A DNA stretch of 63,904 bases, filler included, from an uncultured Methanosarcinales archaeon (GTDB taxonomy: Archaea; Nanobdellota; Nanobdellia; Woesearchaeales; CAYNLP01), in assembly GCA_964398115.1 (NCBI GenBank). It is 3 parts of 3 records of this genome, joined end to end, with 100 filler letters (N's around TTAATTAATTAA, not from the genome) between each part and the next. Parts side by side here need not be neighbours in the genome. Positions count along the whole stretch, not along the records: positions 24,247 to 47,353 come from CAYNLP010000015.1; 2 more parts are not named here. The stretch is one strand, 5' to 3'. Of this stretch, positions 16,542-42,238 are shown piece by piece (the first letter of the stretch is position 1; each line of letters starts with the position of its first letter). The notes below the pieces were generated by a model that did no database searches, was not told the DNA's origin, and saw nothing but the letters and a program-made list of their open reading frames with translations. The position numbers and the translations under genes were made by a program.

Positions 16542-16640
16542 TAGTCCACCTCTTTTTCTCTTTTCGTAGAAAAAACTCCTATATAAATCCTTTCTCTAAT
16601 CGTAACCTATTTAAACCTATTGGAATTCGAAATTTTCACG

Positions 16641-22845: not shown

Positions 22846-24146
22846 ATGTATGACGTTGAAAAAGTCGAAAAGGAAGCACAAGAATTTTGGGAAGATATAA
22901 ACTTACTTGAAAAAATACAGGAGAAAAACGAAGATGGAGAACCTTATTTCTTGCTTGATGGCCCGCCATATGCGAATTACGTCCCACACGCAGGTCACAT
23001 GAAAACCACTTTGATCAAAGACTTATACATAAGACTTGCTATGATGAAGGGTCATGACGTCTGGTTCCAACCAGGATTTGACACTCACGGCCTACCGATT
23101 GAAAACATGGTAGAAAAGGAATTAGAACTGGAAAGCAAGAAAGATATTGAAGAACTAGGAATTCAAACATTCATAAAGAAATGCAGAGAAAGCGCGGTTA
23201 AGAACAAAAACTTATGGCTTGATTACTATGATCGATTTGGGGTGTGGTATAGTTGGAAAGAACCATATCTGACACTCAACAATTCATACCTTGAAAGTGC
23301 TTGGTGGGCTTTCAAAGAAATGTGGGATAAAGGAATGGTATATGAAGGAAAGAAACCAGTACACTGGTGTCCTCACTGCCAAACAGCACTTGCAGGTTAC
23401 GAAGTGACAGACAGTTATAAACAAGTCACTGACCCAGGTGTTTATATAAAGTTTAAGTTGAAAGAAAAAGATGCTTATATAGTTGCGTTTACAACGACTC
23501 CTTGGACGCTACCCAGCAACACCGTTATATGCGTGGCACAAGATGAAGATTATGTAGAAGTTGAAAGCGAAGAAGGTAACTTAATCATCGCTAAGAATAG
23601 ATTAGAATTACTTGACGATTTCGAAATTGATTACGAAGTCAAACGAGAATTCAAAGGAAGTGAACTAGTCGGAGAAGAATATGAACCATTACTAGATGTC
23701 CCGGTACAAGAAGAATTGAAGAAAAATCCGAAAGCTTTGAAGATTTACGAATCTATTCCAATACTGAAAGAAAGAGGAGCAAGTAAAGTTAGTGACAAAG
23801 AAGACGTTCATGAAGATTTTGTGAGTGTTGAAGAAGGAACTGGTTTTGTACATACTGCTCCAGGACATGGAAAGAGTGACAACGAAGTTGGGAAATATTA
23901 TGAACTGCCCAGTCCAAGCCCATTAGATGATGCTTGTAAATTCACTGAAGATGCAGGTATGTGGGCAGGGGAATTTGTCAAAGATGCTGATCATGACATT
24001 GCTGACCACCTGCATAAACAAGGTAAATTGTTGAAATATGAAAAAGTAACGCACCAATACCCATTGTGTTGGAGATGCAAAAATCCCCTTATATTCAGAT
24101 TAAGTAATCAATGGTTCTTGAAAGTCGACGCTGTAAAAGACTTAAT
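22846..24146 (+). CDS. ileS: Isoleucyl-tRNA synthetase, truncated by gap
   Basis: DGPPYAN..HAGH, GFDTHGLPIE, TTTPWTLP, GTGFVHTAPGHG, YPLCWRC. Confidence 0.95.
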
Positions 24147-24246
24147 NNNNNNNNNNNNNNNNNNNNNNNNNNNNNNNNNNNNNNNNNNNNTTAATTAATT
24201 AANNNNNNNNNNNNNNNNNNNNNNNNNNNNNNNNNNNNNNNNNNNN
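24147..24246. other. Assembly gap / contig-joining linker
   Basis: N-run + TTAATTAATTAA + N-run. Confidence 0.98.
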
Positions 24247-26250
24247 CGGGATGAAGATGATGTTGAGGGGACGGTTGATAAGTTAGTTGATCATATCAAG
24301 GATATTTCTGGCAAGGTCAACACTGATACTATTGTATTATATCCGTACGTTCATTTGACGAGCGATCCTGGCAGTCCGGAAACCGCGGTTGATGTTTTGA
24401 ACATGGCAGAAGAAAAGTTGTCAGATTTTACTGTTAAGAGGAGTCCTTTCGGTTGGTATAAAGCGTTTGAAATTGATGTTAAAGGACACCCATTGGCAGA
24501 GCTTAGTAGAGAGTTTGGTCCTGAAAAGAAGAAGGAAAAGGGTGTTTCTGAGGAAGAGTTTGAGTTTAAAGATGAAAGTTTGAGTGATGAGGAAAGGGTT
24601 AAGCTTAGTACTTCCGTGGTTGTGGCGAAAGCGGTTAAGGAGTTGTTCCCGGAAGCGGAAGTGGGGAGTTTTGACTTTTATCATGATCAAAGTTTTGTAG
24701 ATGTTTCTGGCATTACTTTGAACGAGGATCATATCAATCAGATTGAGAAGAGAGTTCAGGAAATTATTGATAAGGATTTAAGTTTTGAAAGAGTGGATGA
24801 CGTTGAGGGTAAGTGGCAGGAGGAAATAGCTAGTGATATTGATGAGATTTATCCTTATGAGCTTGATGGTCTTACCGTTGTTCCTTTATACTCGGATGCT
24901 TTTGTTGATAGCACTGGCGATGTTGGTGCTTTCAAAATTTTGCATTTGGCGAGTGCTTATTGGAGGGGTAGTAGTAAAAACCCTCAGCTTAACAGGGTTT
25001 ACAGTGTTGGTTTCGAAACAGAGGAAGAGTTGGAAAGTTATGTTGAGAGGAGGGAGGAAGCGGAGCGTAGAAGTCATGTAAACTTGGGTAAAGAGTTGGA
25101 TTTGTTCTTCAATCATGACTCTAGTCCGGGTAGTCCGTTTTTCATGCCGAAAGGCACTGTTGTTTTGAACGAGTTAGAAGATTTCTTCCGAGAAATTTAT
25201 TTTGAAGAGGGTTATAAAGAGGTTAGGACTCCTACAATTTACAGTAATGATTTGTGGAAGAAGAGTGGTCATTGGGATCATTACAAGGATGACATGTTTT
25301 TCATAGAAGGTGAGGATTTGGCTATGAAGCCGATGAATTGTCCTAGTCATTGTATAATATATAAGAGAGGTATGAAGAGTTATCGTGACTTGCCTTTGCG
25401 GTATGCTGATTTTGGCATTTTGCACCGTAACGAGTTAAGTGGTACTTTGCACGGGCTTACAAGGGTTAGGAAGTTCCAGCAGGATGACGCTCACGTTTTC
25501 TGCACTAAGGATCAGATGAGAGATGAGATTATGAAGTTGATTGACTTGGTTGATAGGGTTTATAGCGTTTTTGGATTGGATGACTTCCATATTGAGTTGA
25601 GTACGAGGCCGGATGACTTTATGGGTAGTGAGAGTTTGTGGGATGAAGCGGAAGGTGCTTTGAAGCAAGCTTTGCGTGATGGCGGTAATGATTTTAGTGT
25701 TAACGAGGGTGATGGCGCGTTTTATGGTCCGAAGATTGATTTTCACATAACTGATAGTTTGGATAGGAGTTGGCAGTTGGGCACTATCCAGTTGGATTTC
25801 CAAATGCCTGAAAATTTTGACTTAACTTATGAAGGTAGTGACGGCCAGCCTCACAAGCCGGTTATGATTCATAGGGCTATCCTTGGCAGTTTGGAAAGGT
25901 TCTTTGGTATTTTGATTGAACATACTGAGGGGAACTTGCCTTTGTGGTTGAGTCCGGAACAGGTTAGGATTTTGACTATTGCGGATAGGCATAAAGAATT
26001 TGCTAGGGATGTAGCGGCTCGTTTGAAGAGTCATGATGTCAGGGTTAGCGTGGATGATCGGATGGAGAGTGTTGGTAAAAAGGTTCACGATGCTCAAGAG
26101 GATAAGGTTAATTACGTGTTGACAGTGGGGGATGACGAGGTTGAAAGTCAAACTTTGGCGGTTCGTGATCGTAGTGGTGACGTGGAGCATGGTGTTGAAA
26201 TTGATAGTTTTATAGAAAAGGTTTTGAGAGAAATAGAAAATAGGGAATAA
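24247..26250 (+). CDS. thrS: Threonyl-tRNA synthetase (5' truncated): archaeal editing domain fused to bacterial-type core
   Basis: YPYVHL..PFGWYKAF..KGHPLAELSR, then KPMNCP, RVRKFQQDDAH, GAFYGPKID, IHRAILGS. Confidence 0.95.
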   Translation, partial: RDEDDVEGTVDKLVDHIKDISGKVNTDTIVLYPYVHLTSDPGSPETAVDVLNMAEEKLSDFTVKRSPFGWYKAFEIDVKGHPLAELSREFGPEKKKEKGVSEEEFEFKDESLSDEERVKLSTSVVVAKAVKELFPEAEVGSFDFYHDQSFVDVSGITLNEDHINQIEKRVQEIIDKDLSFERVDDVEGKWQEEIASDIDEIYPYELDGLTVVPLYSDAFVDSTGDVGAFKILHLASAYWRGSSKNPQLNRVYSVGFETEEELESYVERREEAERRSHVNLGKELDLFFNHDSSPGSPFFMPKGTVVLNELEDFFREIYFEEGYKEVRTPTIYSNDLWKKSGHWDHYKDDMFFIEGEDLAMKPMNCPSHCIIYKRGMKSYRDLPLRYADFGILHRNELSGTLHGLTRVRKFQQDDAHVFCTKDQMRDEIMKLIDLVDRVYSVFGLDDFHIELSTRPDDFMGSESLWDEAEGALKQALRDGGNDFSVNEGDGAFYGPKIDFHITDSLDRSWQLGTIQLDFQMPENFDLTYEGSDGQPHKPVMIHRAILGSLERFFGILIEHTEGNLPLWLSPEQVRILTIADRHKEFARDVAARLKSHDVRVSVDDRMESVGKKVHDAQEDKVNYVLTVGDDEVESQTLAVRDRSGDVEHGVEIDSFIEKVLREIENRE

Positions 26251-26534: not shown

Positions 26535-27266
26535 ATGGAGAAGGAGAAGGTTTTGCAAGAGTTAGGGTTGAGTAAGAATGAGACAAAAGTTTATCTCGCC
26601 TTGTTAGAAATGGGAGAAAGCACTGCAGGGGAGGTTAGTAAAGAAGCTGGAGTTCACCGTGCAAATGTTTATGACAGTTTGAAAAGACTTAAAGAAAAAG
26701 GTTTTGTGGGGAGTATAAAGAAGCAAGGCACTAAGTATTTCTCAGCAAGTGATCCAGAAAGCTTACGGCGTTTTGTGAAGCAGAAAGAGAAAAAGTTGGA
26801 TCAGATAATGCCCGAGCTTAACCTTTCAAAAAGTATGAGTTCGGAGAGGGAAGCTTCTGTCCATACAGGGATAAGGTCAGCCAGGAAATTGCTTTTGAAC
26901 TTACTCAAATATGAGGAACCTATCTTGGTTTATGGAGTTCCGGAGCAAGCGCCGGATATGTTGAAGAATTGGACTGATAAGTTTCATAAGGAAAGGATTA
27001 GTAAAGAGATTAGGATGGATCACATTTATAATTTTGAAGCTAAGGACAGGATGAAGTATTTGAATAGTATGGATTATACTCAGGCCAAGCATTTATCTCA
27101 AGAATATAGTAGTCCTGTCGCGACGAATATTTGCGGTCCAGAAGTTGTTTTGATATTGTATAAGGAACCTGTTTTTTCTGTGCGGATTGTTTCGAAAGAA
27201 ATAGCAGAAGCTTATCGTAAATATTTCAAATTGTTGTGGGATATGGGTGAAGACATTGAAGACTAG
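26535..27266 (+). CDS. TrmB-family transcriptional regulator
   Basis: LGLSKNETKVYLALL..HRANVYDSL wHTH plus C-terminal effector domain. Confidence 0.88.
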   Translation: MEKEKVLQELGLSKNETKVYLALLEMGESTAGEVSKEAGVHRANVYDSLKRLKEKGFVGSIKKQGTKYFSASDPESLRRFVKQKEKKLDQIMPELNLSKSMSSEREASVHTGIRSARKLLLNLLKYEEPILVYGVPEQAPDMLKNWTDKFHKERISKEIRMDHIYNFEAKDRMKYLNSMDYTQAKHLSQEYSSPVATNICGPEVVLILYKEPVFSVRIVSKEIAEAYRKYFKLLWDMGEDIED

Positions 27267-29044
27267 TTGCTTGTGTAATCATCTACTTCAGAATATATTT
27301 CGTTTAAGGTTTGTTGCATGTCAGGAGTGAGTACGTGGGCTAAGGCGCCAGAGTTTTCGAGTTTTTCAACTCCTCTACCCAGCCCACCTACAAACTCCCT
27401 CTCCCGTGGACTTTGGGGTGAATCTAATGTTCTAAGTTCATGTAAAAATCGATTCAACCTTCCTTCATAGGTTTCATCGTGTTCTCCCATCAAAGCGTTT
27501 TTCAAACTAACATGTTCAGTGGTTGGAGAACTTGGCAAGTTTTGAACATAATCTGTCAGTAAGAAGGAATCATCGACTTCTGCATTGTTTCGTTTCTTAC
27601 TTGCTTTTTCTTCAAAGCTTGCTGCCAAATCAGTAAGGTAAGGGTTTTCTAGTTCTTCTCTAAATCGTTCCGGATTGATCTCTCTAGGTGTTTTGCCTTC
27701 CAATCCTAGATGTGCTGATTTTATCTCTTGGTATTTTCCAATAACGTTTCTGTATTTATCCCTGTTTTCACGAGCTCTTTTTAAAAGATTTTCTGAGCTT
27801 TCCGCAACGTCCTCTTCACCTAATAACGTTAAAGCCTGAGTTATATCTTCTAAATTGCGTTCTACATCATCTAGTCTAGTTACGTAATCGGTAACTTCTT
27901 GAATGTCATCAGGGCTGGAATCAAGTAAATTTTTAATCTCGTTTAAGTCACGCCTTGCACAGGTAGTTACTTTATCTTTTCTCTTTTCATATTTACTTTC
28001 TAATATTTGTCGTAGTTTTCTAACTTCATCCCTCTTGTTTTGGAATTTTTCTCCTTCTACATCGTCTTGTGTTAATCTCTCTAATTCGGAAACCTTTGAT
28101 GTGGTTGTTATTTCTGAAATGTTTTTTGAGAAGTATCGGTCGAAGTTTTTAACTGCATGTTCTAATCTTTGTTTTTCTTCTATCACCTTTTCTCTTTGTT
28201 CCTGCAGTTCCTGGTAGTTGTTTAAGTCGTGGTGTAATTCATGGAGGAGTCCTTTTGCTTTCTCCTTTGTTTCAGGATGTGTGAATGCTTTGTGATCGAG
28301 GAAGAATCCTCTATGCATTTTTTCCACTAGCGAGGGTTGGTATTTTTGTTCTAACTGTTCGAGTTCTTTTTTGGACTCCTCCGCTCTTTGTAAGAAGTTT
28401 CGTATGTCTTGTTTGTCTTGAATGTCTTCGTGATAGTATCTATCAGTTAGGGATTCTAATGATTCCTGGATTTCTTCTGCTTGTGAATTGAATTCAAGAT
28501 AGTCATTTATGTGATGCCAGTTTTTGTCTCTTGGAGTTTCTTTCTTTGATTCCCCTAGTCTTTTGCATAAGCCGGCAACTCTTGTTAGTTGATCTCTCCT
28601 GGCTTTGCCTTCATCATATAATTTGTATTTTTCTTGGAACTCTTGATATCCTTTATGTACTAATAGTTTTCTCGCTCCTTCGTCATACCGGTCAGAAATA
28701 TCTTTTAATCTTTCAGCCCATTTTTCTTCAATACTTTTCCCGCTTTTTTGAGATATTCTTTTTAATTCAGAGAATAAGTCTTCGTCGAATCTCCCTTCAT
28801 CCAAGTTATAGATGGATTGTGATAGTTTGCTTTTTTCAACTAAGTTTTGTATTTTGTTTCCATATTGAACTACTTGTTCTATTCTTTCATTAGTAAAAGG
28901 AGTTTGTGGTATTCTTTGTGTTTTTGAAACATGTCTTCTGTATTTTTCTTCCGCTTTAGGACTTCCTATGAATTGTTTAATTTCTTTCCATCTCTGGGTT
29001 TGCTTTTCTGCGTATCGGCTTATTTCTTCATCTGTTAAAGTCAT
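27263..29044 (-). CDS. Large helical/coiled-coil hypothetical protein
   Basis: 593 aa ORF, last gene of operon, GGTGA SD. Confidence 0.75.
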   Translation of the reverse strand: MTLTDEEISRYAEKQTQRWKEIKQFIGSPKAEEKYRRHVSKTQRIPQTPFTNERIEQVVQYGNKIQNLVEKSKLSQSIYNLDEGRFDEDLFSELKRISQKSGKSIEEKWAERLKDISDRYDEGARKLLVHKGYQEFQEKYKLYDEGKARRDQLTRVAGLCKRLGESKKETPRDKNWHHINDYLEFNSQAEEIQESLESLTDRYYHEDIQDKQDIRNFLQRAEESKKELEQLEQKYQPSLVEKMHRGFFLDHKAFTHPETKEKAKGLLHELHHDLNNYQELQEQREKVIEEKQRLEHAVKNFDRYFSKNISEITTTSKVSELERLTQDDVEGEKFQNKRDEVRKLRQILESKYEKRKDKVTTCARRDLNEIKNLLDSSPDDIQEVTDYVTRLDDVERNLEDITQALTLLGEEDVAESSENLLKRARENRDKYRNVIGKYQEIKSAHLGLEGKTPREINPERFREELENPYLTDLAASFEEKASKKRNNAEVDDSFLLTDYVQNLPSSPTTEHVSLKNALMGEHDETYEGRLNRFLHELRTLDSPQSPREREFVGGLGRGVEKLENSGALAHVLTPDMQQTLNEIYSEVDDYTSN

Positions 29045-30629
29045 AATCTATCACCTTTTCTTCTCCAGATATAGGATTTCTCAAGGGAATCGTTCCTTGT
29101 TCTGTTTGGGTTTGTATCCACGCTTCGTATTGATCTGGGAATTTTTCCTGCATTGCTCGTGCAGCATTTTGGAAACAATCCTGCCAATCTATTTCATCTC
29201 CGAAGTTTAAACTTCTGCTTCCAAGTTCGTAGTTTTTCCCATTTTTATCTAGGAATCCGACATTCTCTAATTCTCCTAAACTAGTTTCTACTAAGCCTTT
29301 TGTAATCCCAGAATTGGTCTTCCGCAACTGATGATATATATCTTTGGTAGTTGATGCTTTGTCTTCTTGCACCATGTCGATTATTCTATCTCCTAAAGCT
29401 GGTATGTCAAGTACGCTTAGAGTTAGTTGTTGACCATATAATGTGTGTACTAGGTTGGCGTCTTGTACGTTTACGAATAAATTACCATTTTGTTCATGAC
29501 GTTCGCTGTTATGGAATTTCGCGCTGGCTTCCATCAAGTCAAAGTAGTAATCGTTGAAGCTCAACGCCTTCGTTTCTTTCGGTATGAATTCATTGAGGTA
29601 AGCTGCGAATGGATTGATGTAATTATCGTATTCTTTTTGTAGACACTCATTCAAGTGTTGTTTTAATCCTTGAATTTCTTCATCGGTTATTTTTCGTTTT
29701 TCCTCTCTCGTCATCATACGTCTCTTTGCATCTTCGTTCAAAACGTCTTCCAAGTGTTCTTTAGAATTGTCTGTGTAGAGTTGTAAGAATCTTCTAGAAA
29801 GTTCTTGATCTTTGTTGTAGTTATTCTCAAAGGCGAGGGTGTAGATTATTTCTTTATCATGGCTTATTGTTTGTACTATGTTTTCTTTCTTACTTTGATC
29901 TCTTACTCTCCTGTTTGCGTCTCTCCCTTCCGTAATGTTCTTAACTACTTCAACTACGATGTTGTTTCCTCTGTTCATTGCTTTTTGAAGCTCTGGAATG
30001 TAAATTATTTCGTGATTGTTTATCTCTTCAGCGTTGTACATTTCTGCGGTTTCGCTAGAAAGTTCCATAGTGTAAACTTCATCTTCAAACAATTCTACCA
30101 ATGGATTTACTAAATGGCTTTTTCCACTCCCGCTTGGGCCTTCTATTCCGAAAGAAGTTTTGGATATTGTTGCTAATGTTTGTAGTATGCAATTGTCTTT
30201 TTCTCCTATCACTTCTTTGTCAGCGTAGTAATCTAAGAGTGTTTCAAGACTGGGACTTGTAGATTGGTATGTTGATTTAGAATCTATTTCTGATTTTGCT
30301 TGGTTTTCTGCCACGTACGCATCATTACTTCCAACCTGTATTTCAGAAGTTGAAATCTCGTTTGATTTTTTCTTATCAATCTTTTTTTGATCAGTGGCGG
30401 GTTTAATCACAGGTTTTTCTTCTACTTTTAACGTTTCCCTCTCTTTTTCTTTCTCTTCATCATTAGTTTGCTCTAATTCCCGTCGGAGTTCTATCAGGTC
30501 ACTAGCTAAACTATCTTTACCTATTCTTCGTAAATCTCTGTGTAATTCTTCCTTGTAGGAGTCTGTCATGAAAGTGGGGTCTAAAACGCTTTCTTTGAAG
30601 CTCTTTCCCAAATCTTTTATCGTACTCAT
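29028..30629 (-). CDS. MCM-like P-loop ATPase with C-terminal winged helix
   Basis: VIGE, Walker A GPSGSGKS, IIYIPE, ELSRRF Arg finger, C-terminal wHTH-like LGELENVGFL. Confidence 0.6.
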   Translation of the reverse strand: MSTIKDLGKSFKESVLDPTFMTDSYKEELHRDLRRIGKDSLASDLIELRRELEQTNDEEKEKERETLKVEEKPVIKPATDQKKIDKKKSNEISTSEIQVGSNDAYVAENQAKSEIDSKSTYQSTSPSLETLLDYYADKEVIGEKDNCILQTLATISKTSFGIEGPSGSGKSHLVNPLVELFEDEVYTMELSSETAEMYNAEEINNHEIIYIPELQKAMNRGNNIVVEVVKNITEGRDANRRVRDQSKKENIVQTISHDKEIIYTLAFENNYNKDQELSRRFLQLYTDNSKEHLEDVLNEDAKRRMMTREEKRKITDEEIQGLKQHLNECLQKEYDNYINPFAAYLNEFIPKETKALSFNDYYFDLMEASAKFHNSERHEQNGNLFVNVQDANLVHTLYGQQLTLSVLDIPALGDRIIDMVQEDKASTTKDIYHQLRKTNSGITKGLVETSLGELENVGFLDKNGKNYELGSRSLNFGDEIDWQDCFQNAARAMQEKFPDQYEAWIQTQTEQGTIPLRNPISGEEKVIDYDFNR

Positions 30630-32197
30630 GTTTCCACCCCAATTTGTTCTTCAACTCTTCTTCTAATTTCAAGTTCTTCTGCTCGTCTTTCTACCTCTTT
30701 TTCGATTTGGTATTCTTCTGCTCTTCGTAATTCTTCTTGATGTTGTTTGATTAGGTCAACGAGTTTTTCGTCATCAACCGTCTTGAAAGAGTTTTTCAAG
30801 TCTTGAAATGTTTCTCTATCGCACTTTATGTAATCGTCAAAGCCGTCGATATCCCATCCGGATAGTACCTTGTCGGTGGCTGTTCTAGCAACGTTTTTCA
30901 CATCCCTACCTGTAAAGTCTAACTCGTTGCAAAGGGCTCCTATGTCATTCCAGTTTTCAACTTGTACGTGTCCTTTTTCGATTGGTTGTTCAAGTTTTTT
31001 CTGCATCAATGTCGCGTATTGACTAGGAGTTTCTGGACCGTTGACTTTAACGAATTTTTCTCTTAGCCTGCTTGGTAGGGCATCATCTGAATTTATAGGA
31101 TAATTGGTTGTGGCGATTAAGAACCAGTTTCCTTTTCTTTGGCTGAACGCTCCTTCTAATTCGTTCATAAATGTTTGTAGATTGCTTTTGTCTTCACTAC
31201 TGTCGCTGTCATCTCTTCCGTGGAATATTGATTCTATGTCTTCAGCGACTAAGATGTTGAGTTTGTCGCCTTTGTTTACTTCTTGAAATATTTCTCTTAG
31301 TTTGTTAGCGCTTTCTGCGTAGTATTTGGTTTTGAAATTGTCTAATCTTTTCACATCTAATGGTTTGTCGTTGTATTCGGCTAGTTCTTGAGCGTGGTTG
31401 AGAATGGCCTCGATTGTGAAGCTTTTTCCTTGGCCTGGTTCGCTGTAAAAGTAGAATGTTTTCGGAAGTTCTCCAACGTCTTCATCCATTATGTTTACTT
31501 GTTCTTCAATGTCATAGAACATAATGTTGTATACTGCTCTGGTAAGGCTTTCTTTCATCTCTGTATTTCCTACAACATCATCTAGCGTGACTCCTGTCTT
31601 GGCTCGTGGACTATCGTAGGATCGTGTTTCGAAACCGTTGAACGTATGGTCTAATGCTTCTACATGTACTTGATTTGCTTTTCTCCTGTAAGTTTCGAAA
31701 CCGTTAGTTTTGGCTTTTTCAGAACTTTCTTCCTTAATCCATTTGAAGTAATCTGCTGTGAGATCCTTCGTTTCTTCTACACCGTTTTGATTTTCTACGG
31801 CGGAGATGTAATCTTCTAATAGTGTTCTGGTAACTCTTACCGGTCCTTGTTCAAAGTTTATTTCTCCTCCAAAAATTTGTGGAGGTTGTCTGTCGTATTC
31901 TAAAGTTTCTAATCCTTCTGTAGCTCCAGCGTAAAGGCTGTACATGAGTAGGAAAGTGTTTCTTTCATGTGAAGGTTTACCTAGGTGTTCACTTTCAGAA
32001 AGGGTTTCTCTGAAAGCTTCTCCTACTGTCATGAAGTCTTTGTAAGAGTCTACGACCTTGTTTATTTCTCCGTTGTTTCTGTAGCTAACATTGTGTAGTT
32101 TATTTTCTAGGTCGTAGATTCTTTTGTTGACTTTTCTGTCTACTTCTGCTCTTTTTCTTTCTACCAGTTCGTCATCTAACTGTAATATTTCAGGCAT
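30626..32197 (-). CDS. Classic-clade AAA ATPase with variant motifs
   Basis: TLDDVVG, SEPGQGKS, KYYAESA pore loop, ILVAEDIES, ATTNYP, SRLRE, FTGRDVKN. Confidence 0.8.
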   Translation of the reverse strand: MPEILQLDDELVERKRAEVDRKVNKRIYDLENKLHNVSYRNNGEINKVVDSYKDFMTVGEAFRETLSESEHLGKPSHERNTFLLMYSLYAGATEGLETLEYDRQPPQIFGGEINFEQGPVRVTRTLLEDYISAVENQNGVEETKDLTADYFKWIKEESSEKAKTNGFETYRRKANQVHVEALDHTFNGFETRSYDSPRAKTGVTLDDVVGNTEMKESLTRAVYNIMFYDIEEQVNIMDEDVGELPKTFYFYSEPGQGKSFTIEAILNHAQELAEYNDKPLDVKRLDNFKTKYYAESANKLREIFQEVNKGDKLNILVAEDIESIFHGRDDSDSSEDKSNLQTFMNELEGAFSQRKGNWFLIATTNYPINSDDALPSRLREKFVKVNGPETPSQYATLMQKKLEQPIEKGHVQVENWNDIGALCNELDFTGRDVKNVARTATDKVLSGWDIDGFDDYIKCDRETFQDLKNSFKTVDDEKLVDLIKQHQEELRRAEEYQIEKEVERRAEELEIRRRVEEQIGVET

Positions 32198-32231
32198 TTT
32201 TGTTCACCCCAAAGTCCGGAAGGAGTGTTTT

Positions 32232-33257
32232 TTAGACTTCGTAGCCTGGACCTCCTTCCATTCTGCGTCTTTCTCTGATTTCGTCAACTCTCTGGTCAAG
32301 GTATTCTTCGTGTTTCCTTCCTTGTTCTGCTAGTTCGTCCATCACGGTATTCCCTTCTTGACCGTTTTGGTAGAGTGGTTGACCTCCGTTTAGTGTGGGC
32401 AATTTGCCACTTTCTAATTCGCCTTCTAGAACTTCCTCTACATGCTCTTCTAAGTTTTGCCAGTCTACACGTGTTCCTTTGACTGCTTGCATTATGTCCA
32501 TGCTGCTTACTCCGTTATTCAACGCGATTTCCGCTACTCTAATTCTTTCTTGATTCTTGTGGTAGCAGTCTCGCAGGATGTTCCTACGATTTCTTTCAAC
32601 GGCTATTTTTTGAGCAAGCATTTGGCTGGCTTTATCCTCTCTAACGTAGATTGACTTGACCTCATCTAGTTTTTGCTTAACTTCTCTTTTTTTCTGTTTC
32701 ACATCTTTGAGTTCTTCTCTGGTTTCTCTGTAGGAGAGATCTCCTCTTTCTTCAAACGCTCTTTTTTTATCTTCTCTGTATTGACTACGGAGTTGTTCTT
32801 CTCTTTGACTAAGATGTTTGAGAGTTGTTTCATAGTCATCCATGAGAGAGTCGGCTGAGGTTACTTTGTCTTCGCTTTCTTGAATTTCATCTATCAGATT
32901 TTCAAGCCTGTGATCTACTTGTCGGGCTTTGTCTTCTAATTCTTGGCTTCCTTCTCTCATTTGATCTAGTTGTCGGTATAGGAAGTTTTCTGCGTCGTAA
33001 AGTCCAACCTTGTCTAAGAATTCAAACACGGGTTGGAATTCTTGAGATGTGTATTCAGAGAGTATGTTCTCTCTAATTTCTGTTTGTTTTCTGTCTAGTC
33101 TTTCAATTGCGTCGTTTATTTCGCTGATGTTTCTGCCATCTAAGTCTCCTCCGTGAAACACTATTTTTTCTAGTTCACTAGTGCTGGGAGCCTTTCCACC
33201 CCCGTTTGTTCTTGGTCTTTCATTTTCTTGTTGAGTAGTTGTTCGTTGCATTTTCAT
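32232..33257 (-). CDS. Coiled-coil protein, possibly PspA/ESCRT-III-like
   Basis: Long helical hairpin; GGAGGTG SD; loose PspA resemblance by eye. Confidence 0.6.
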   Translation of the reverse strand: MKMQRTTTQQENERPRTNGGGKAPSTSELEKIVFHGGDLDGRNISEINDAIERLDRKQTEIRENILSEYTSQEFQPVFEFLDKVGLYDAENFLYRQLDQMREGSQELEDKARQVDHRLENLIDEIQESEDKVTSADSLMDDYETTLKHLSQREEQLRSQYREDKKRAFEERGDLSYRETREELKDVKQKKREVKQKLDEVKSIYVREDKASQMLAQKIAVERNRRNILRDCYHKNQERIRVAEIALNNGVSSMDIMQAVKGTRVDWQNLEEHVEEVLEGELESGKLPTLNGGQPLYQNGQEGNTVMDELAEQGRKHEEYLDQRVDEIRERRRMEGGPGYEV

Positions 33258-33370
33258 GCACCTCCTAAAATTCTTTTTACCTCTGAATTGTCTAGAGGCT
33301 GGTTAGGGTTGCTGCATTTCTCATTACTATCTTAATAGGTTCGACTTTCTGTTTTGTCGAAATGTTTGAT

Positions 33371-33613
33371 CTACTCGTACGTCATGATTTCTGACTCGTA
33401 AGATACTTCTTCAATGCCGGTTTCTTCCAGAATCATAGAGTGTTGTAATCCATATTTTGAATTAGTTTCCAGAGATTCTTCTCGGTCTAGTACTTCAGAC
33501 TGAAGTCTTTGATCTAATGTTTCTGCTTCTGTGTCGTCGCATCCTGCGCAGGTTCCCAGTAGGAATCCTAGGCTTGCCCATCCGATGTTTTTGGCAGTTC
33601 TTGTGAGTTTCAT
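33371..33613 (-). CDS. Small putative lipoprotein
   Basis: Basic N-terminus, hydrophobic segment, CAGC lipobox-like end. Confidence 0.6.
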   Translation of the reverse strand: MKLTRTAKNIGWASLGFLLGTCAGCDDTEAETLDQRLQSEVLDREESLETNSKYGLQHSMILEETGIEEVSYESEIMTYE

Positions 33614-34120
33614 TTAGAATACCTCCTGGATTTTGTTTTCAAGTGAGTTGTACATTCCTTGCATTTTGTCCCAAAGGTCTTGTCCGCTGTCTTTCACTAC
33701 TTCTTTAGCGCTATTACCAGCTAGTTTCCTTTGGTATTTTCTGCTCAGATTATCCGTTCTTTCTTCCATTAAAGCGTAGGCGGTGCTGTCTGGCATACTG
33801 TTTACCAGATTTCCTGTTACCCGGTTTCTTGCAGAATCACTCAACGCGTTTGCGGCTATGTATACTGTTTGTGAGATGTCGTCGCTGTATTTAGATAGGT
33901 CTTCTTCCTCTCTGAGTTGTTCTATGAATTCGTTAGCCTCTTCTTCAACATCAGTTGTAAATGGTTCTGATACTGTTTCTTTGGCTCCTTCGTAGGCGTT
34001 TCCTATTGTTTCTCCTACGTTTAGTTGATCCCCTGCATATAGCAAAGCACCAACTGTTGTAACCCCTGCTACAACTTTTTTCCAGTTTGTACCTGATTGC
34101 GTACGTTCATCTAGCGGCAT
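33614..34120 (-). CDS. Single-pass membrane-anchored helical protein
   Basis: KKVVAGVTTVGALLYAG anchor; GGGAGG SD; TATA at ~34203-34217. Confidence 0.7.
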   Translation of the reverse strand: MPLDERTQSGTNWKKVVAGVTTVGALLYAGDQLNVGETIGNAYEGAKETVSEPFTTDVEEEANEFIEQLREEEDLSKYSDDISQTVYIAANALSDSARNRVTGNLVNSMPDSTAYALMEERTDNLSRKYQRKLAGNSAKEVVKDSGQDLWDKMQGMYNSLENKIQEVF

Positions 34121-34282
34121 CGTTATTCAACCTCCCACGGTATCGAAATGTTAAAATACCGCGTTTTTGTATTGTTTTTTACGTTTCAGAAACTAGATAC
34201 ACCTTTATATTTATAAACATAAGCTGTAGTGTTTACCACTACACATTTTCATTGTTTTGTAGAATTAGTTTTTTGGATATGT

Positions 34283-35791
34283 TCAAAGTGCTTCTTCAGC
34301 TAGAGAAGGGAATTCTGATTTCCAAGTTTGATATGTCCTATGTCCTTTCTCCAATCTTGACAACAAATCTTCAATATTTTCATTCATTTCTTTCACTCTC
34401 TCAATATCTAACAACTCCTCTTCATCAATATCCATCTCGTTCGCTTCATCCACCAAATTAAGAAGTTTCTCAATTTCGCTTTCAACTCTGTCTTGTAAGA
34501 CTTGTTGGAATGGATTTCCATAGTCGTCATGCACCTTTGGGATTTCCTCTTCTCTTATTTCTTCTAATAACTCGCTTCGGTAATCCTCTCTTATACCAGA
34601 TAATTGTTCAATAGCTTCAGGTGAAGTGAAACCAGAATTAGGAATTTCTTCTTCCAATCTTTCTCTATACTTTTTCATCAACGGATCTAAGTCTATTCTT
34701 ATACTGTCTTCAACTTCACTCATTAACTTAGGATCAAGAACTCCAAAGTTTTTTAATTCACTGACTTTCTTTTCTAATTCAGATCTTTCTTCACTTTTTA
34801 GCTTATCCTTAGAAGTAAGTGTTTTAACATCTGTCAATACAGAAATTTGGAAATTATTATCTCGAGCGTATTGGAAATGATTTAATAGTTCTTCAGCAGT
34901 TTGGAAACGCCTGTTGGGATCACGCCTCATCGCTCTTATCACGATTGGTGAGAAATCCTCTATACCCTCATAATCTAAACTTTCAGGGTTCAATTCTTGC
35001 TTCCTATCTTGGATGTTTCTCATTTTATATTCAGTAGGATTAACATTTTCACCAGGGAGGTTTTCTTCAGTAAGGTTAAACGGATTTCTAGCTGTTAAGA
35101 GTTCATAAAGTAGTAATCCTGCTGCATAGATGTCCGCTCTCTGATCTGCTTTTCCTTTAGCTTCTTCTGGTGCTCTATAACTAAGAGTTCCTTTTGCAGA
35201 AGTTGATTTCTTAATATACGTTGCCAGTCCAAAATCTCCTAATTTTGCAACCCTTTCTTCTCCATCAAAAATTAGAACATTACTGGGTTTTACGTCTCTA
35301 TGGTAATTAGTGTGGATTTCTCCTTCGCCACCACTAATTTCTAACTGGTGGAAATTACTTAATCCTTTAACAAAGTCTTCATAGAGTTTAATTTTTTCCT
35401 CATCGGTTATAGGACCGTGAGTTACTCCTTCACTATCTGTATAATGATCTGATCCCACTACTTCATCTAACCCGGCGTTTGCTAATTCCATTAATAGCGC
35501 TGGATATTCTCTATTGCTTCCTTGAGGACTTAATGATAGATAGTCTAAAACGTCTACAACATGAGGTGTTGATTTTCCCATAATCCTCGCTTCTTTTTGG
35601 TACAAAGAATGCACTCTAGGGTTATCATCTTTAGTTACTTTCACTGCTACATTCCTGCCTAAGCTCTGATCATATGCTCTAATAACATCTCCTTGGGATC
35701 CTGATCCTAACGGTTTAAATTGTGTGAATCTGCTTCTGCCCTGATGTTGTTCTGAACTTAAAATATTTATTAATTCTCCAAATCTGCTCAT
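34283..35791 (-). CDS. Hanks-type Ser/Thr protein kinase with helical C-terminal domain
   Basis: GSGSQG, VAVK, HRDVKPSN, DFG, APE, DIYAAG. Confidence 0.93.
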   Translation of the reverse strand: MSRFGELINILSSEQHQGRSRFTQFKPLGSGSQGDVIRAYDQSLGRNVAVKVTKDDNPRVHSLYQKEARIMGKSTPHVVDVLDYLSLSPQGSNREYPALLMELANAGLDEVVGSDHYTDSEGVTHGPITDEEKIKLYEDFVKGLSNFHQLEISGGEGEIHTNYHRDVKPSNVLIFDGEERVAKLGDFGLATYIKKSTSAKGTLSYRAPEEAKGKADQRADIYAAGLLLYELLTARNPFNLTEENLPGENVNPTEYKMRNIQDRKQELNPESLDYEGIEDFSPIVIRAMRRDPNRRFQTAEELLNHFQYARDNNFQISVLTDVKTLTSKDKLKSEERSELEKKVSELKNFGVLDPKLMSEVEDSIRIDLDPLMKKYRERLEEEIPNSGFTSPEAIEQLSGIREDYRSELLEEIREEEIPKVHDDYGNPFQQVLQDRVESEIEKLLNLVDEANEMDIDEEELLDIERVKEMNENIEDLLSRLEKGHRTYQTWKSEFPSLAEEAL

Positions 35792-36627
35792 CTTCTTACA
35801 CCTCTAATCGTAATTGCTGAGGCGTTGTCTGAACCTGCCAAGCCTTGATATACTTCATCCTTTGACATGTCTTTTTCTTTTGCTATCATTTTCACAACGT
35901 CTTCTGGATTGTTTGTTTTCTCCACTATTTTTTGAGAAGGTTTTTCCTCTTCTAATAATTTTGTTAGTTCTTCATGGCTGACTGTGTTGTAAACTCCGTC
36001 GGTAATCATCAACATTGTGGTTCCTACCTCTATGTTACCGGAATATGTTTCTACTTCTATTTTTTCATTCTTGCCTAAAGATTGTGGTGATGATTTTTGA
36101 TCTTGATTGATGATTGTCTGTGGGTATTGTAAATTTTCAACTAAGTAAGTGGCTTGGTCTTCAGTTATTTGCTCTAGTTCGTTTCTCGCTCTGTAAATTC
36201 TTGAATCTCCAACATGCCCCGCTACGTATTGACCTGTTTCCGATAATACCAGAACATCTAGCGTGGTTCCAGTACCGTCATTATATCTTTCATTTAATTT
36301 CTTGTTTAGGAAAGTGAAGCTTTGGGTTAAGTGTTGTGCGAGTTCTTCTGAAAAATCATTTCTTAACAGGTAATCATCTAATTCCTGGATAACATTTTTT
36401 GTTGCTTCCTCTCCCGCTTCAGATCCGTAGTTGCCGTGACCGTCTGCAATAGCAGCTATTACGTAACCCCTAGTGGCAACTCCGTTTAAAGCGTCTTCTA
36501 AAAATTCTGTAAATCTTCTATTTGTTACTGGACCTCTGGTTTTTACTCTCGTCGAATCTTGATTTTCTTGAAAACTACTGTCTTTTTGTTTTCCTATATC
36601 CTGGGCTTGACTTATTTCGAATTTCAT
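35788..36627 (-). CDS. PP2C/PPM-family protein phosphatase
   Basis: ENQD, IADGHG, GTT, HVGDSR, TDGV, DNAS. Confidence 0.92.
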   Translation of the reverse strand: MKFEISQAQDIGKQKDSSFQENQDSTRVKTRGPVTNRRFTEFLEDALNGVATRGYVIAAIADGHGNYGSEAGEEATKNVIQELDDYLLRNDFSEELAQHLTQSFTFLNKKLNERYNDGTGTTLDVLVLSETGQYVAGHVGDSRIYRARNELEQITEDQATYLVENLQYPQTIINQDQKSSPQSLGKNEKIEVETYSGNIEVGTTMLMITDGVYNTVSHEELTKLLEEEKPSQKIVEKTNNPEDVVKMIAKEKDMSKDEVYQGLAGSDNASAITIRGVRR

Positions 36628-38921
36628 TTTTCGACGTAATGCGGGTGTATGTTTAAACCTGGTATTTCTATTCTAGTTCTTGTTGCAAAACTTTTTTCTG
36701 AAACGTATACAAAGTTATCTCTAGCTAGCAACGTTCCTCGTTCAAATCCATGTATATCAGTTGGGGTCATTTTTAATTGAGTATCTTTTTTATCTTCGGA
36801 GTTTAAATCCGTTCTTCTTAGTTTATTTTCTGTCACTGTTATTAGTTCAAGGTTTTCTCTTCCTTGGTAGAGGTCAAAAATACCTTTTCTTGTTTTATGT
36901 TCTCTTCGACTTTCAGGATTGTCAGTCATCCAGTGGTGTAGCTTTGTTGGGTCCATAGCGCTTGATGCAAGTACAACGTTTTCACCGGCATGGATGTTTG
37001 TAACCCAGTTTACAAGTCCATTGTAATTTCTAACGAGTTCTCCATCTTCATCTAACATGTGTACTGTTCCTTCCCCTCCAATAAAGTATACTGGTTGGTC
37101 TCCTATCCTAGCTTTATCCAAAGCGTTTGCTCGTTGACTGCCACTTTCTCTCAATTTATCAGTTATATCTATATCTCTCACTTCACCAATTTGATTTCCT
37201 GACTGTCTATCAACATCAAATGTTTTAATTCCTATCCTACCACTTCTGGTATACAGCACATTTATTTGGTTCAAACCTCCAACCAAGTCTTCTATTTCAT
37301 ATCCTTGTAACTTTTTACTTCCGACATCACCATTTATCACATCAGCAGCGAAAACTTCTTCATATGTTCTTTGATTTCTGTCACTCCACCTCATAGTTCC
37401 AAGAGCAAGTCGTCCTCTTAGTTCTAAATCGTTAATTGTAGTGGTAGATTTTGACATGCCTCTTTCTTCCAGTTCAAACCCTCCAAGTCGTGAGAAGTCT
37501 TCAAGTTTGAATACTTCATAAGTGTATTGTCCATCAGTTTGTAGTAGTATCTTTCCTGAAAGTCCTAAGTTTTCATATTCAGGATTTTTAGTTCCTGGTT
37601 TAACTCTGACCTTTTGTGGAGGGGGTGTTTCTCTCCTTTCAATATCGTTTTCTGGAACTGTAACATAAGAACTGGGTAGTGAACCATCCATTTTTCTCAT
37701 AAATCTTTCTGACAATTCTTCGGCTTTTTCTTCAAGCTCACTTTGACTCATCCCTTTGTTGTCATCTTCCATCCGGTTTAGTATTTCATCTCTAATGTCT
37801 TTTCGGTCAACATTTCCAGAAATAAGGTCTAACATCTTTACTTGATCTGAGATAGCTTGATCTATTTTTTCTTGATGTCCTGCTTTGAGTCCTTTAATCC
37901 AGTTTCCGTCGTCTTTGGGTACTGCGTAGAAGTTGTGGAAACTTACAGGTTGTGTTACGAAAGCACCGCCGTTTTCACTTTCGTATAGGCTTGAAGCTGT
38001 TATTTCTTCTTCAGACATTATTGATGTGACTGTATCGTATATTGCTCTGGCTGTTTCTTCTACTGTACCGACTTCCAATCCTATTAATGATTTAGCGTGT
38101 TGTTGAATGTCACTTGCAAGTTCTGCAGGTGTTAAGTCCAAATTCGGTGGTGGTACTTTGTCATTAATTTGAAGGTTTTCTAAAACGGGCCATGGGTCGC
38201 TGTGACTTCCTACTACGTATGCGTTTTCTACTACAGCTCTTAAGTTAGTGGATTCCATTCCCTTCAAGTTCTTCCTCTCATTTTGTAGTTCACGATATTT
38301 CTTTCTTATCAGTGAAACTAGCCGATTTTGGTCTGTTTGGCTTAACCCTACTACTCTTCTTGGATCCACATTGCTGGTTTGAGAGAATACGGAAGACATA
38401 GCGCCAACTTCATTCGTAACTACAAGGACGGATCCATCATAATCTTCAGGAAATCTCTCAGCAATATCCTTAATTTTTGGAGCATTAAGAACAGTCATGA
38501 TGTTTCGGTTGAATCCAATCTCGTTTTTGTCTGTCCAACTTCGGTAATTTCGATATTCTTCAGAAGCCGCGGTTATTACAGAAATGTCAACATCTTCCAT
38601 GAATTCTTCCATGTGACTATATTTTTTTGGTCTAAGATTGGCTTGGTGCACATCTTGTCCTCTAGCGGTGTCTACACTACGACCCCATTGTGTTGGAAGA
38701 TTTTCTTGCTCGCTGGCCATGTAAATATTTTCAATCCAGAAACTGTGTTTAGGTGGGAATATATCGTTTAAAGCAAATACTGTATTTCTTCCCACGCTCC
38801 CCATACCTAGAACTGCTATGTTGTACTCTACTTGTTTGTTCGCCTGTCTTCCTTTTTCACGCAGGTCTTCCTTGAGGACGTCCTCTATAGTGTCTTGCAG
38901 GTTGAAATCTATCATGATCAT
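36624..38921 (-). CDS. LDH/MDH-fold dehydrogenase fused to beta-rich (propeller-like) domain
   Basis: GMGSVG, VVTN, TDQNR, VVGSH; C-terminal ~310 aa beta-strand repeats. Confidence 0.7.
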   Translation of the reverse strand: MIMIDFNLQDTIEDVLKEDLREKGRQANKQVEYNIAVLGMGSVGRNTVFALNDIFPPKHSFWIENIYMASEQENLPTQWGRSVDTARGQDVHQANLRPKKYSHMEEFMEDVDISVITAASEEYRNYRSWTDKNEIGFNRNIMTVLNAPKIKDIAERFPEDYDGSVLVVTNEVGAMSSVFSQTSNVDPRRVVGLSQTDQNRLVSLIRKKYRELQNERKNLKGMESTNLRAVVENAYVVGSHSDPWPVLENLQINDKVPPPNLDLTPAELASDIQQHAKSLIGLEVGTVEETARAIYDTVTSIMSEEEITASSLYESENGGAFVTQPVSFHNFYAVPKDDGNWIKGLKAGHQEKIDQAISDQVKMLDLISGNVDRKDIRDEILNRMEDDNKGMSQSELEEKAEELSERFMRKMDGSLPSSYVTVPENDIERRETPPPQKVRVKPGTKNPEYENLGLSGKILLQTDGQYTYEVFKLEDFSRLGGFELEERGMSKSTTTINDLELRGRLALGTMRWSDRNQRTYEEVFAADVINGDVGSKKLQGYEIEDLVGGLNQINVLYTRSGRIGIKTFDVDRQSGNQIGEVRDIDITDKLRESGSQRANALDKARIGDQPVYFIGGEGTVHMLDEDGELVRNYNGLVNWVTNIHAGENVVLASSAMDPTKLHHWMTDNPESRREHKTRKGIFDLYQGRENLELITVTENKLRRTDLNSEDKKDTQLKMTPTDIHGFERGTLLARDNFVYVSEKSFATRTRIEIPGLNIHPHYVEK

Positions 38922-40166: not shown

Positions 40167-40171
40167 CTTTT

Positions 40172-41818: not shown

Positions 41819-42238
41819 ATGAATGAGCGTGTTTGGAAAGTATTGCAGGAAGTGAGGAAGGATGCGAGAAAAGGTTTTACGGCGATAAGTGAGGATACTG
41901 GTATTCCTATCACTACGGTGCATGATTATTTTTACAAGTTGAAAGAAAAGGGTTTGCTAAAAGGTTTGGTTTCTTTGCTTGATTTTTCCAAGTTGGGTTT
42001 TCACTTTCATTTTTTGTATGTGGCGGATTATTGTCATGATTTGGAAAGTTATTTGTGGCATGAGTATATGGTGAATAATTTGTTTGAGTCTGATGATAAA
42101 TTAATTTTTGACATTTATTTCAAAGCTTTGGATGAAAAGGAGAAGTTTGACAAAGTTTTAAATGGTTTTGACGTTGAAGTTGTAGATTTTAGGATTGTGG
42201 ATGAGTTGCGGCGTGAAAGTTTTGTTCCTAGGCGTTAG
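41819..42238 (+). CDS. Lrp/AsnC-family regulator
   Basis: DARKGFTAISEDTGIPITTVHD HTH, LDFSKLGF. Confidence 0.8.
   Translation: MNERVWKVLQEVRKDARKGFTAISEDTGIPITTVHDYFYKLKEKGLLKGLVSLLDFSKLGFHFHFLYVADYCHDLESYLWHEYMVNNLFESDDKLIFDIYFKALDEKEKFDKVLNGFDVEVVDFRIVDELRRESFVPRR

Follow-up and report, generated by a model that had tools for sequence, protein, structure and literature searches.

A conserved two-ATPase gene module of DPANN archaea that matches no described system

Introduction

The nearest described pieces to the locus reported here come from two systems. The MoxR-vWA-transglutaminase-like triad is predicted, in the relevant passages of Zhang & Aravind (2012, PMC3495828), to be a membrane-proximal degradation system, and BrxL of BREX, in sections of PMC12839542, illustrates that MCM-family AAA+ domains are known in defence; the same sections give DUF6079 as the BrxC family. 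A further domain of relevance, DUF5906, has eight mentions in an article about the D5 helicase of vaccinia (PMC9611036). Here we describe a string of six genes, A to F, at positions 27263-34120 of a 63,904-nucleotide stretch of DNA (hereafter, the window; three parts joined end to end) from an uncultured archaeon, assembly GCA_964398115.1. The string is a real conserved module that recurs in order in DPANN archaea and matched no described system, and the six genes are a local, reduced form of that chromosomal module.

The core of the module is a pair of unrelated ring-type ATPases, D and E, encoded side by side. Both have a partner that is charged, helical and fast-evolving: for D it is C, encoded before it, and for E it is F, whose gene overlaps that for E. 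Four of the six proteins belong to no family, and both ATPases have novel N-terminal regions. An earlier note on this DNA had singled out the string as an unassigned six-gene operon of membrane anchor, lipoprotein, PspA-like coiled coil, AAA ATPase, MCM-like ATPase and helical protein. Its central observation, a two-ATPase string unlike known systems, stands, and the string proves to be conserved; the likeness to PspA is unsupported, the likeness to MCM extends to the fold alone, the tethering of the ATPases to the membrane is weakly founded and the limit of six genes is too narrow.

Gene order and conservation

Translation of the open reading frames (ORFs) of the window confirmed six co-oriented genes on the minus strand:

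A, 33614-34120, minus strand: acidic protein of 168 amino acids with a basic N-terminal stretch, a signal-anchor-like segment at residues ~16-32 and a helical remainder
B, 33371-33613, minus strand: acidic protein of 80 amino acids with a hydrophobic N-terminal segment ending LLGTCAGC; starts right after the stop of A
C, 32232-33257, minus strand: highly charged protein of 341 amino acids with coiled-coil-type composition; directly upstream of D
D, 30626-32197, minus strand: classical-clade AAA ATPase of 523 amino acids
E, 29028-30629, minus strand: AAA+ ATPase of replicative-helicase type, 533 amino acids
F, 27263-29044, minus strand: charged helical protein of 593 amino acids with a conserved C-terminal module of ~100 amino acids (~495-593)

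The string is tight, as the earlier note had it. A and B abut, the D and E genes overlap by 4 nucleotides (nt) and the E and F genes by 17 nt, with gaps of 113 nt between B and C and 34 nt between C and D. Shine-Dalgarno-like motifs of the GGAGG/GGTG type lie 5-10 nt before all six starts (GGGAGGT, AGGAGGT, AGGAGGTG, GGGGTGA, GGGGTGG and AAGGTGAT), and the A/T-rich box and 7-bp inverted repeat reported upstream of A are likewise present.

Conservation was assessed in 27 loci with an E homologue, found with an E profile and a near-invariant 8-residue pattern in 185,579 species-representative genomes and compared by gene calling, BLAST, iterated hidden Markov model (HMM) searches and all-against-all clustering; counts of loci given below are out of these 27. 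In 21 loci D is found upstream of E, and in 20 a charged protein similar in size to C (265-437 amino acids) is encoded directly before D. A charged protein of 319-708 amino acids comes directly after E in 16, of which 13 form one phmmer family. Homologues of A occur in five loci, and small N-anchored proteins occupy the position of B in eight. Sequence homologues in other genomes exist for A, D, E and the C-terminal module of F. A gene-neighbourhood comparison around the ATPases, suggested in the earlier note as a check on its proposal, therefore finds the homologues syntenic elsewhere and leaves the proposal unrefuted. The gene order is, moreover, shared between two deep clades of the E tree, one of which holds the E of the window. 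D is missing from six loci. One of these, L007, is a contig of 1.7 kb; the other five (L013, L023, L024, L025 and L027) have room for the gene.

By label, the loci comprise 12 Woesearchaeota, 2 Nanoarchaeota, 1 Aenigmatarchaeota, 1 unclassified archaeon, 10 third-party assemblies labelled 'Methanosarcinales' and 1 bacterium of the Candidate Phyla Radiation (CPR). The 'Methanosarcinales' rows interleave with Woesearchaeota rows in the E tree, no more clustered than shuffled labels, and we do not take them as evidence that the module is present in methanogens. L016 adjoins L012 in the same tree, with branch lengths of 0.07 and 0.11.

Labels or bins look unreliable for L003, L005, L007, L008, L016-L019, L021, L026 and L027, and also for L020, which is labelled CPR (Yonathbacteria) and has match statistics almost identical to those of L021.

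The two ATPases

By sequence, E yields weak P-loop matches only: no PDB entry was matched by its sequence, and the E profile reached only P-loop-level stretches of ABC ATPases in PDB. The structural model is more informative (predicted local distance difference test, pLDDT, 83.7; predicted template modelling score, pTM, 0.76). Residues 1-66 form three helices, and residues 66-121 a disordered linker rich in Ser, Thr, Lys and Glu (pLDDT below 50). In the AAA+ core that follows, a beta-hairpin at residues 238-255 (strands 238-244 and 249-255), with basic residues R240, R241, R243, K247 and K248, stands before the sensor-1 strand (260-266); the core leads into a lid and then a winged-helix-like C-terminal region (~413-527). 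Across an alignment of 36 family members, GSGK170, E213 (in YIPELQK), N269 of sensor 1, R279/R280 and R377 are invariant.

A Foldseek search of the model against PDB places MCM subunits (MCM2-7 and archaeal MCM) first, at E-values of 4e-9 to 1e-6 over ~420-450 aligned columns with template modelling (TM) scores of 0.34-0.39 only, and BchI and RuvB after them. E has the AAA+ core, the pre-sensor-1 hairpin, the arginine pair after sensor 1, the lid and the C-terminal winged helix of an MCM helicase. Unlike MCM, it has no OB-fold/zinc N-terminal domain, as the model contains no beta-rich N-domain elements, and no hairpin inserted in helix 2 is visible. Pfam MCM gives no match to the E of the window at an E-value of 0.01 or below, and is outside the 25 Pfam families most often matched by the 36 members (E-value 1 or below). 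As modelled, then, E is a replicative-helicase-like AAA+ ATPase with a winged helix, MCM-like in its predicted fold; it falls outside the MCM family because it has neither the MCM N-domain nor an MCM profile match. The earlier description of E as MCM-like is thus apt for the fold and not for the family.

Other relatives were considered. E differs from BrxL in lacking a Lon-like domain and in matching neither BrxL nor BrxC in PADLOC, where its only match is mad8 at 5e-4. We also set aside identity with BrxC/DUF6079, for which a precomputed PF19557 tag in a protein database was not reproduced by hmmscan at an E-value of 1 or below. In sequence, E leans towards the SF3/D5-type primase-helicase NTPases through DUF5906, the commonest Pfam signal in the family (36 members, E-value 1 or below): 22 of the 36 have weak matches, the best at 6.1e-5 and all under the 27.6-bit cut-off, and the E of the window has none. 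FUR-type winged-helix-turn-helix and Mg_chelatase also match below cut-off in nine members each, the FUR/ArgR-type signals lying at the C-terminus. Structural matches to viral models are stronger than those to PDB (unnamed entries at 8.9e-17 and 2e-12; fusellovirus SSV-K1 ORF A460 at 2.5e-10), and many of them are primases or primase-helicases, DUF3987 or DUF927 proteins. E departs from the viral and plasmid NTPases of this type in its sub-cut-off matches, in having no primase domain and no tblastn match among phage and plasmid records, and in being encoded in a conserved cellular neighbourhood.

The E family numbers 263 representatives at an E-value of 1e-30 or below and 1130 at 1e-10 or below in a 50%-identity library. 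The top 150 members span 226-662 amino acids, and so no long fusions were seen among them. The best identities to the E of the window are 39% for L001 in the tree and 44% for metagenome protein P0002 on a JGI contig. An MCM/SF3-type motor can therefore exist as a free-standing ATPase with a winged helix, in a family of at least 263 representatives at 50% identity.

The second motor, D, was correctly called an AAA ATPase by the earlier note. Its N-domain (~1-200) is helical throughout; an AAA module (~205-470) follows, and a long helix (476-519) closes the chain at the C-terminus. Pfam AAA (PF00004) matches residues 249-382 at an E-value of 2.5e-16 (60.7 bits against a cut-off of 21.2); Walker A is intact, the sensor-1 Asn is present, and G255, G257, K258 and N365 are invariant across 21 sequences. 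The best PDB sequence matches are AFG2 (phmmer, 4e-14) and p97 D2, and Foldseek of the model (pLDDT 82.1) returned p97/Cdc48 (2e-10), NVL, katanin and Vps4, with a TM score of 0.73 to Metallosphaera Vps4, normalised to the target. While its AAA module resembles those of the classical unfoldases (Cdc48/p97, AFG2, katanin, Vps4), D carries a single such module on a helical N-domain of ~200 residues, without a CDC48_N, MIT, Vps4_C or AAA_lid_3 match. Its Walker B motif reads E319-D320 in place of the D-E found in 19 of 21 family members. In the model the N-domain begins with three helices of ~25 residues (9-99) and continues helical to residue 174; residues 1-205 had no usable ESM Atlas match, and the modelled domain is novel, with no known family.

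The nearest relative of the window's D, in L003, has Asp-Asp at Walker B.

Proteins encoded beside the ATPases

The description of C as PspA-like did not survive profile searches: of 17 C-position proteins, that of the window included, none matches PspA_IM30 or Snf7 at an E-value of 1 or below, and the sole PspA_IM30 trace is in the F-position protein of L022 (0.028). C itself has sub-threshold coiled-coil matches only (CCDC138_cc at 0.0039; an SMC coiled-coil region at 8e-6, far below cut-off; JetC at 7e-4). Its homology to the C-position proteins of other loci was not established by hhalign (0.003) or by an HMM of the counterparts (0.014), the latter score being tied with that of an unrelated ORF and subject to high bias. 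In arrangement, a charged helical protein encoded directly before a single-module AAA ATPase recalls the ESCRT-III/Vps4 and PspA/Vipp1 pairs; the first ~100 residues of D are three long helices in the model, and C-position proteins have a short C-terminal motif in common in our own reading of their alignment. Unlike those pairs, the C-position proteins show no Snf7 or PspA_IM30 match and D no MIT or Vps4_C match, and a Vps4/ESCRT-III pair for D and C found no support in these profile searches.

F, the helical protein without a family that the earlier note placed at the end of the string, does indeed match no family in Pfam, NCBIfam, PADLOC or PHROGs. Searches with the whole protein and with residues 470-593 against a set of 5.8 billion proteins returned F itself only, and the ESM Atlas gave no usable match. 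The link to other genomes lies in the C-terminal module, of which an HMM built without the window's F matches that protein at 9.7e-9, the sole significant match among 314 ORFs of the window; a full-length HMM of the relatives did not match it.

Some relatives share parts with the MoxR-vWA-transglutaminase-like triad. Transglut_core was found in 3 of 17 scanned F-position proteins (L012, L015 and L016; 5.6e-12 and 5e-11 in L012 and L016), and genes for MoxR (four loci) and vWA (five loci) are placed between D and E (L005, L010, L011, L012 and L016). The full triad is present in L012 and L016. The window lacks it: its F has no Transglut_core and no cysteine in its C-terminal part, and HMMs of the relatives' MoxR and vWA proteins match nothing in the module, their sole match in the window being Cdc48 (16620-18929) at 1.9e-4. 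Further differences are that F is soluble and not an 8-transmembrane protein of the YebA type, and that in the relatives the three domains supplement a D-E core, which is absent from the triad as described.

The aligned position of the catalytic cysteine is not cysteine in the F protein of L015.

Neither A nor B matches Pfam, NCBIfam, PADLOC or PHROGs. A is a member of a conserved family, matched at 9.8e-28 by a family HMM built without it, whose N-terminus keeps a basic stretch and, after it, ~18 residues that are small or hydrophobic. The counterparts of B in other genomes are positional only; an HMM of the small N-anchored proteins at its position in eight loci gave nothing below an E-value of 0.85. 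LLGTCAGC, a plausible lipobox by consensus at the end of a segment that may be a signal peptide, is not kept in these counterparts. Hydropathy maxima in a 17-residue Kyte-Doolittle scan are weak (1.11 for A and 1.16 for B), and C to F have no hydrophobic segment. By the positive-inside rule, the bulk of A and B would face the outside of the cell, with ~15 residues in the cytoplasm. The earlier note had made A and B membrane-tethered partners of the ATPases. This picture is weak: A and B would lie largely outside, C to F lack any hydrophobic segment, and nothing links the two groups physically.

Linked genes and upstream signals

The six genes are not the whole unit, as a set of regulatory and signalling genes is linked to them and relatives carry extra genes. 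The features concerned are:

TrmB-family regulator, 26535-27266, plus strand: convergent with F, the 3' ends overlapping by 4 nt; Pfam TrmB, 1.7e-21
Ser/Thr protein kinase, 34283-35791, minus strand: 163 nt before A; Pfam Pkinase, 1.1e-31
PP2C-type phosphatase, 35788-36627, minus strand: overlaps the kinase gene by 4 nt; Pfam PP2C_2, 2.6e-11
Dehydrogenase-like fusion protein, 36624-38921, minus strand: 765 amino acids, with a lactate/malate dehydrogenase (LDH/MDH)-like domain at ~30-340 and ~420 amino acids of unknown fold
Two ORFs of 398 and 429 amino acids, 38970-41461, minus strand: head of the upstream string, without a family
Winged-helix-turn-helix regulator, 41819-42238, plus strand: 139 amino acids, divergent from the minus-strand string; HTH_24, 1.1e-6
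A/T-only 14-mer, 34204-34217, minus strand: coding-strand sequence TTTATAAATATAAA, 84-97 nt ahead of the start codon of A
Inverted repeat TGTAGTG/CACTACA, 34225-34231/34237-34243: perfect over 7 bp, arms 5 nt apart; bounded by the kinase stop (34283) on one side and the A/T box on the other
Inverted repeat CGGTAT/ATACCG, 34138-34161: arms 12 nt apart; past the A/T box and ahead of the Shine-Dalgarno site of A

A convergent TrmB gene lies just downstream of the module in 13 loci, and TrmB occurs anywhere in 15. The LDH-like fusion is found in nine loci, the kinase in eight and PP2C in seven. A profile of the LDH-like family matches L-lactate/malate dehydrogenases of PDB at 9.4e-21 over ~300 residues, and the fusion of the window is matched by an HMM of its relatives at 9.9e-19. 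R200 and H240 are invariant across the family, in an alignment for which the L010 row was chosen by position only. The company of a dehydrogenase-like domain and a kinase/phosphatase pair is unusual and, to judge from the sequences, may point to a metabolic sensor. In the window the LDH-like/PP2C/kinase string is upstream of A, while in relatives it is beyond TrmB; the linkage between module and signalling genes therefore outlasts rearrangement. A triad of LDH-like fusion (~760-800 amino acids, the N-terminal LDH/MDH-like domain being complete), PP2C and kinase downstream of TrmB recurs in L008, L012, L015, L016, L017 and L019.

Among the other linked genes, homologues of the winged-helix-turn-helix regulator stand directly before A or the module in four loci (L003, L012, L016 and L021). 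For the ORFs of 398 and 429 amino acids, neither Pfam nor any of the 27 loci offers a match; their membership is uncertain, and they may have been added to the module in this lineage only. A stand-alone Mrr_cat/NERD protein of the PD-(D/E)xK fold (~170-190 amino acids) occurs in 11 loci and scores above the Pfam cut-off in seven of nine scanned.

The loci with this Mrr_cat protein are L001, L003, L008, L010, L012, L015, L016, L017, L019, L021 and L026. It is usually encoded upstream of C, and after F in L001.

The earlier note gave the string its own TATA box. The A/T-only 14-mer is present, and its assignment as a candidate archaeal TATA box follows the archaeal consensus. By our own rough estimate, chance alone would yield one perfect 7-bp repeat within 40 nt in about every 240 AT-rich bases, and TGTAGTG/CACTACA is for this reason not significant alone. 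It could be an operator or, since it sits just behind the kinase stop, the terminator hairpin of the kinase gene. The CGGTAT/ATACCG repeat is additional to the features first reported and is likewise close to chance expectation by our estimate.

Comparison with defence, mobile-element and published systems

No system was found in the window with PADLOC-DB 2.0 (2023 release, covering systems up to that date), where matches were confined to generic kinase, AAA and coiled-coil models: IetA at 2e-6 (generic AAA), mad8 at 5e-4 and JetC at 7e-4. The fullest relative, L012 (16 proteins), gave the same generic kinds of match. The kinase scores well against PADLOC models of defence kinases (PD-T4-6, 1e-38; mad6, 1.6e-38), while its score against the NCBIfam MAD6 kinase is 85 bits with a cut-off of 460, and the PglW model is also far below cut-off. 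With matches that are generic or far below cut-off, we rejected membership of MADS, BREX and IetAS.

In PHROGs, the window matches only generic ATPase families of unknown function. A tblastn search with E found nothing in 50,697 phage and 72,556 plasmid records, a search that leaves archaeal viruses of DPANN largely uncovered, and no integrase, capsid or replication-initiator domain of Pfam was found between 16.6 and 44.6 kb. The earlier statements that the string matches no recognised system and that no integrase or capsid is visible agree with these searches. A description of the module was likewise not found in full-text literature searches, or in two papers on DPANN protein families (PMC9258230 and PMC8204110); subscription journals, arCOG tables and supplements lie outside that body of text. 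Within PADLOC, PHROGs, the phage and plasmid records and this literature, the module is new and undescribed.

The flanking chromosome encodes threonyl- and leucyl-tRNA synthetases (ThrRS, LeuRS), CTP synthase, GatD and Cdc48. G+C content is even, at 0.36-0.41 across the module region and 0.35-0.43 for the window, and tRNA and Rfam scans of the window found no genes.

Possible functions

We tentatively propose, at low confidence, that the module is a cellular machine for remodelling DNA or nucleoprotein under the control of phosphorylation. E would use its winged helix and basic hairpin to assemble into a ring on nucleic acid, and would then translocate; D would unfold or disassemble scaffolds of C and F, or E itself; and the kinase/phosphatase pair, fed by the dehydrogenase-like sensor, would serve as an on/off switch, for instance through the Ser/Thr-rich linker of E. 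Such a machine would act in the cell's own chromosome biology, in DNA maintenance, segregation, repair or uptake. The synteny, the folds of D and E and the chromosomal setting speak for it, the last with housekeeping flanks, even G+C content, no tRNA gene and no phage, plasmid or PADLOC match. That E engages nucleic acid is suggested by its winged helix, basic hairpin and helicase-type fold and by the nuclease-fold neighbour in relatives; this Mrr_cat protein, in 11 loci, is what points to DNA as the substrate.

Several points weigh against this proposal. DNA binding, ring assembly and the interactions between proteins are steps that we infer, and a pre-sensor-1 hairpin is also present in AAA+ proteins that work on protein substrates; BchI and RuvB are among the matches of E. 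The swapped Walker B motif of the window's D may mean altered or weak ATP hydrolysis. D is absent from the five loci that have enough upstream sequence to hold it, B and C have positional matches and no sequence homologues, and HMMs of the relatives' proteins find no nuclease-fold, MoxR or vWA gene in the window. Recovery of only 27 loci from 185,579 genomes looks patchy, not universal, and suits an accessory or defence role too; conflict systems also typically vary in gene content and have partners that evolve fast.

Genomes of DPANN archaea measure about 1 megabase, and a 7-kb module (~15 kb with the signalling genes) whose order is kept across deep lineages is consequently a sizeable investment. 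With similar reserve, we suggest that the module may be an undescribed, lineage-wide two-motor machine of DPANN archaea, in which an AAA unfoldase and a stripped-down, helicase-like AAA+ ATPase are coupled to an LDH-like sensor through a kinase and phosphatase, and which would serve either a new form of archaeal immunity or a DNA transaction of symbionts, such as the handling or uptake of host DNA by cells unable to make their own nucleotides. Should it act on DNA, the module would represent either a new architecture for defence or a component of how these symbionts handle their chromosome or interact with their hosts, matters that are poorly understood. Experimental handles are available in the families that HMMs can follow (A, D, E and the C-terminal module of F), in the invariant catalytic residues and in the link to the kinase, which is open to test.

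The closest rival, unlikely by itself yet a serious contender, is a novel anti-virus or anti-plasmid system regulated by the kinase and phosphatase. E would then be a helicase-like sensor or translocase on foreign DNA, D and MoxR-vWA the remodelling or activating ATPases, and the effector either the Mrr-type protein, which relatives have and the window has lost, or F through its transglutaminase-like domain. The Mrr_cat/NERD-type protein of 11 loci, the varying optional parts (MoxR in four, vWA in five, the transglutaminase-like core in three F proteins), the fast divergence of A, B, C and F around conserved D and E, and the apparently patchy recovery of 27 loci are all consistent with defence, as are the PD-T4-6 and mad6 scores of the kinase and the MCM-type AAA+ domain of BrxL (PMC12839542, in the sections cited above). 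The PADLOC matches of both the window and L012 are, however, generic; those of the kinase amount to general Pkinase similarity, as its MAD6 score of 85 bits against 460 shows. The window copy contains no recognisable effector, stands between housekeeping genes without compositional anomaly, and is linked to an LDH/MDH-like enzyme with conserved catalytic-type residues, an odd component for a defence system.

It is improbable that the module instead unfolds, processes or degrades proteins near the membrane as an elaborated relative of the MoxR-vWA-transglutaminase-like triad, with D and E threading polypeptides and F, with or without a peptidase domain, binding or cleaving them. L012 and L016 speak for it, with MoxR and vWA between D and E and Transglut_core in F, the parts of a predicted membrane-proximal degradation system (PMC3495828, in the passages cited); D belongs to an unfoldase clade, and BchI, of the MoxR/chelatase group, is among the structural matches of E, as Mg_chelatase is among the weak Pfam matches of nine E members. 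In the window, however, MoxR, vWA and the transglutaminase-like domain are all missing and the C-terminal part of F has no cysteine. The domain occurs in just 3 of 17 F-position proteins, the L015 copy being without the aligned cysteine; YebA-type peptidases are membrane proteins, which the F proteins are not; and the winged helix of E and the nuclease-fold protein point to DNA.

Still harder to credit is that no single system exists and that two or three unrelated small operons (A-B, C-D and E-F) are chance neighbours in compact genomes. The 113-nt gap between B and C, the presence of the A family in five loci only, the five loci with E and no D, and the predicted outward-facing topology of A and B beside cytoplasmic C to F would fit such an arrangement, but D and E adjoin in 21 loci, C and D in 20 and E and F in 16, start and stop codons overlap in the window, and the order is kept between two deep E clades.

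Finally, we consider it highly improbable that the string is the remnant of an integrated plasmid or virus, with a replication helicase (E) and accessory genes fixed in the chromosome: the viral-model matches of E (8.9e-17, 2e-12 and SSV-K1 ORF A460 at 2.5e-10) do exceed those in PDB, and the Pfam signal seen most often in its family is DUF5906, a D5-type helicase domain, but integrase, capsid, primase and tRNA genes are missing. E finds no tblastn match in the 50,697 phage and 72,556 plasmid records, which leave archaeal viruses of DPANN largely uncovered; PHROGs yields generic ATPase families only; G+C content shows no break across the region; and at 30-45% identity the gene order is still the same, cellular-type regulators and signalling genes included.

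Further observations on the window and related loci

Two flanking synthetase ORFs are irregular. A 450-amino-acid ORF at 22846-24198 (plus strand) matches only the first half of the core profile of class-I (Leu-type) tRNA synthetases, and the ThrRS ORF at 24355-26250 (plus strand) has a TTG start and an archaeal editing-domain match that sets in only at position 83 of the 137 in the profile. Both genes may be split or truncated, or their starts may be mis-set.

Paralogous right-handed beta-helix proteins of ~415 amino acids follow the kinase or the module in L017 (17555-20058) and L022 (14354-15601 and 16915-18147).

Proteins encoded between 26.5 and 44 kb of the window are acidic, with pI values of 4.3-5.5 and an Asp plus Glu fraction of ~0.2 in 14 of 16 computed; the exceptions are TrmB and a 131-amino-acid ORF at 42292-42687. 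Taken from composition, this trend may point to a salt-adapted lineage.

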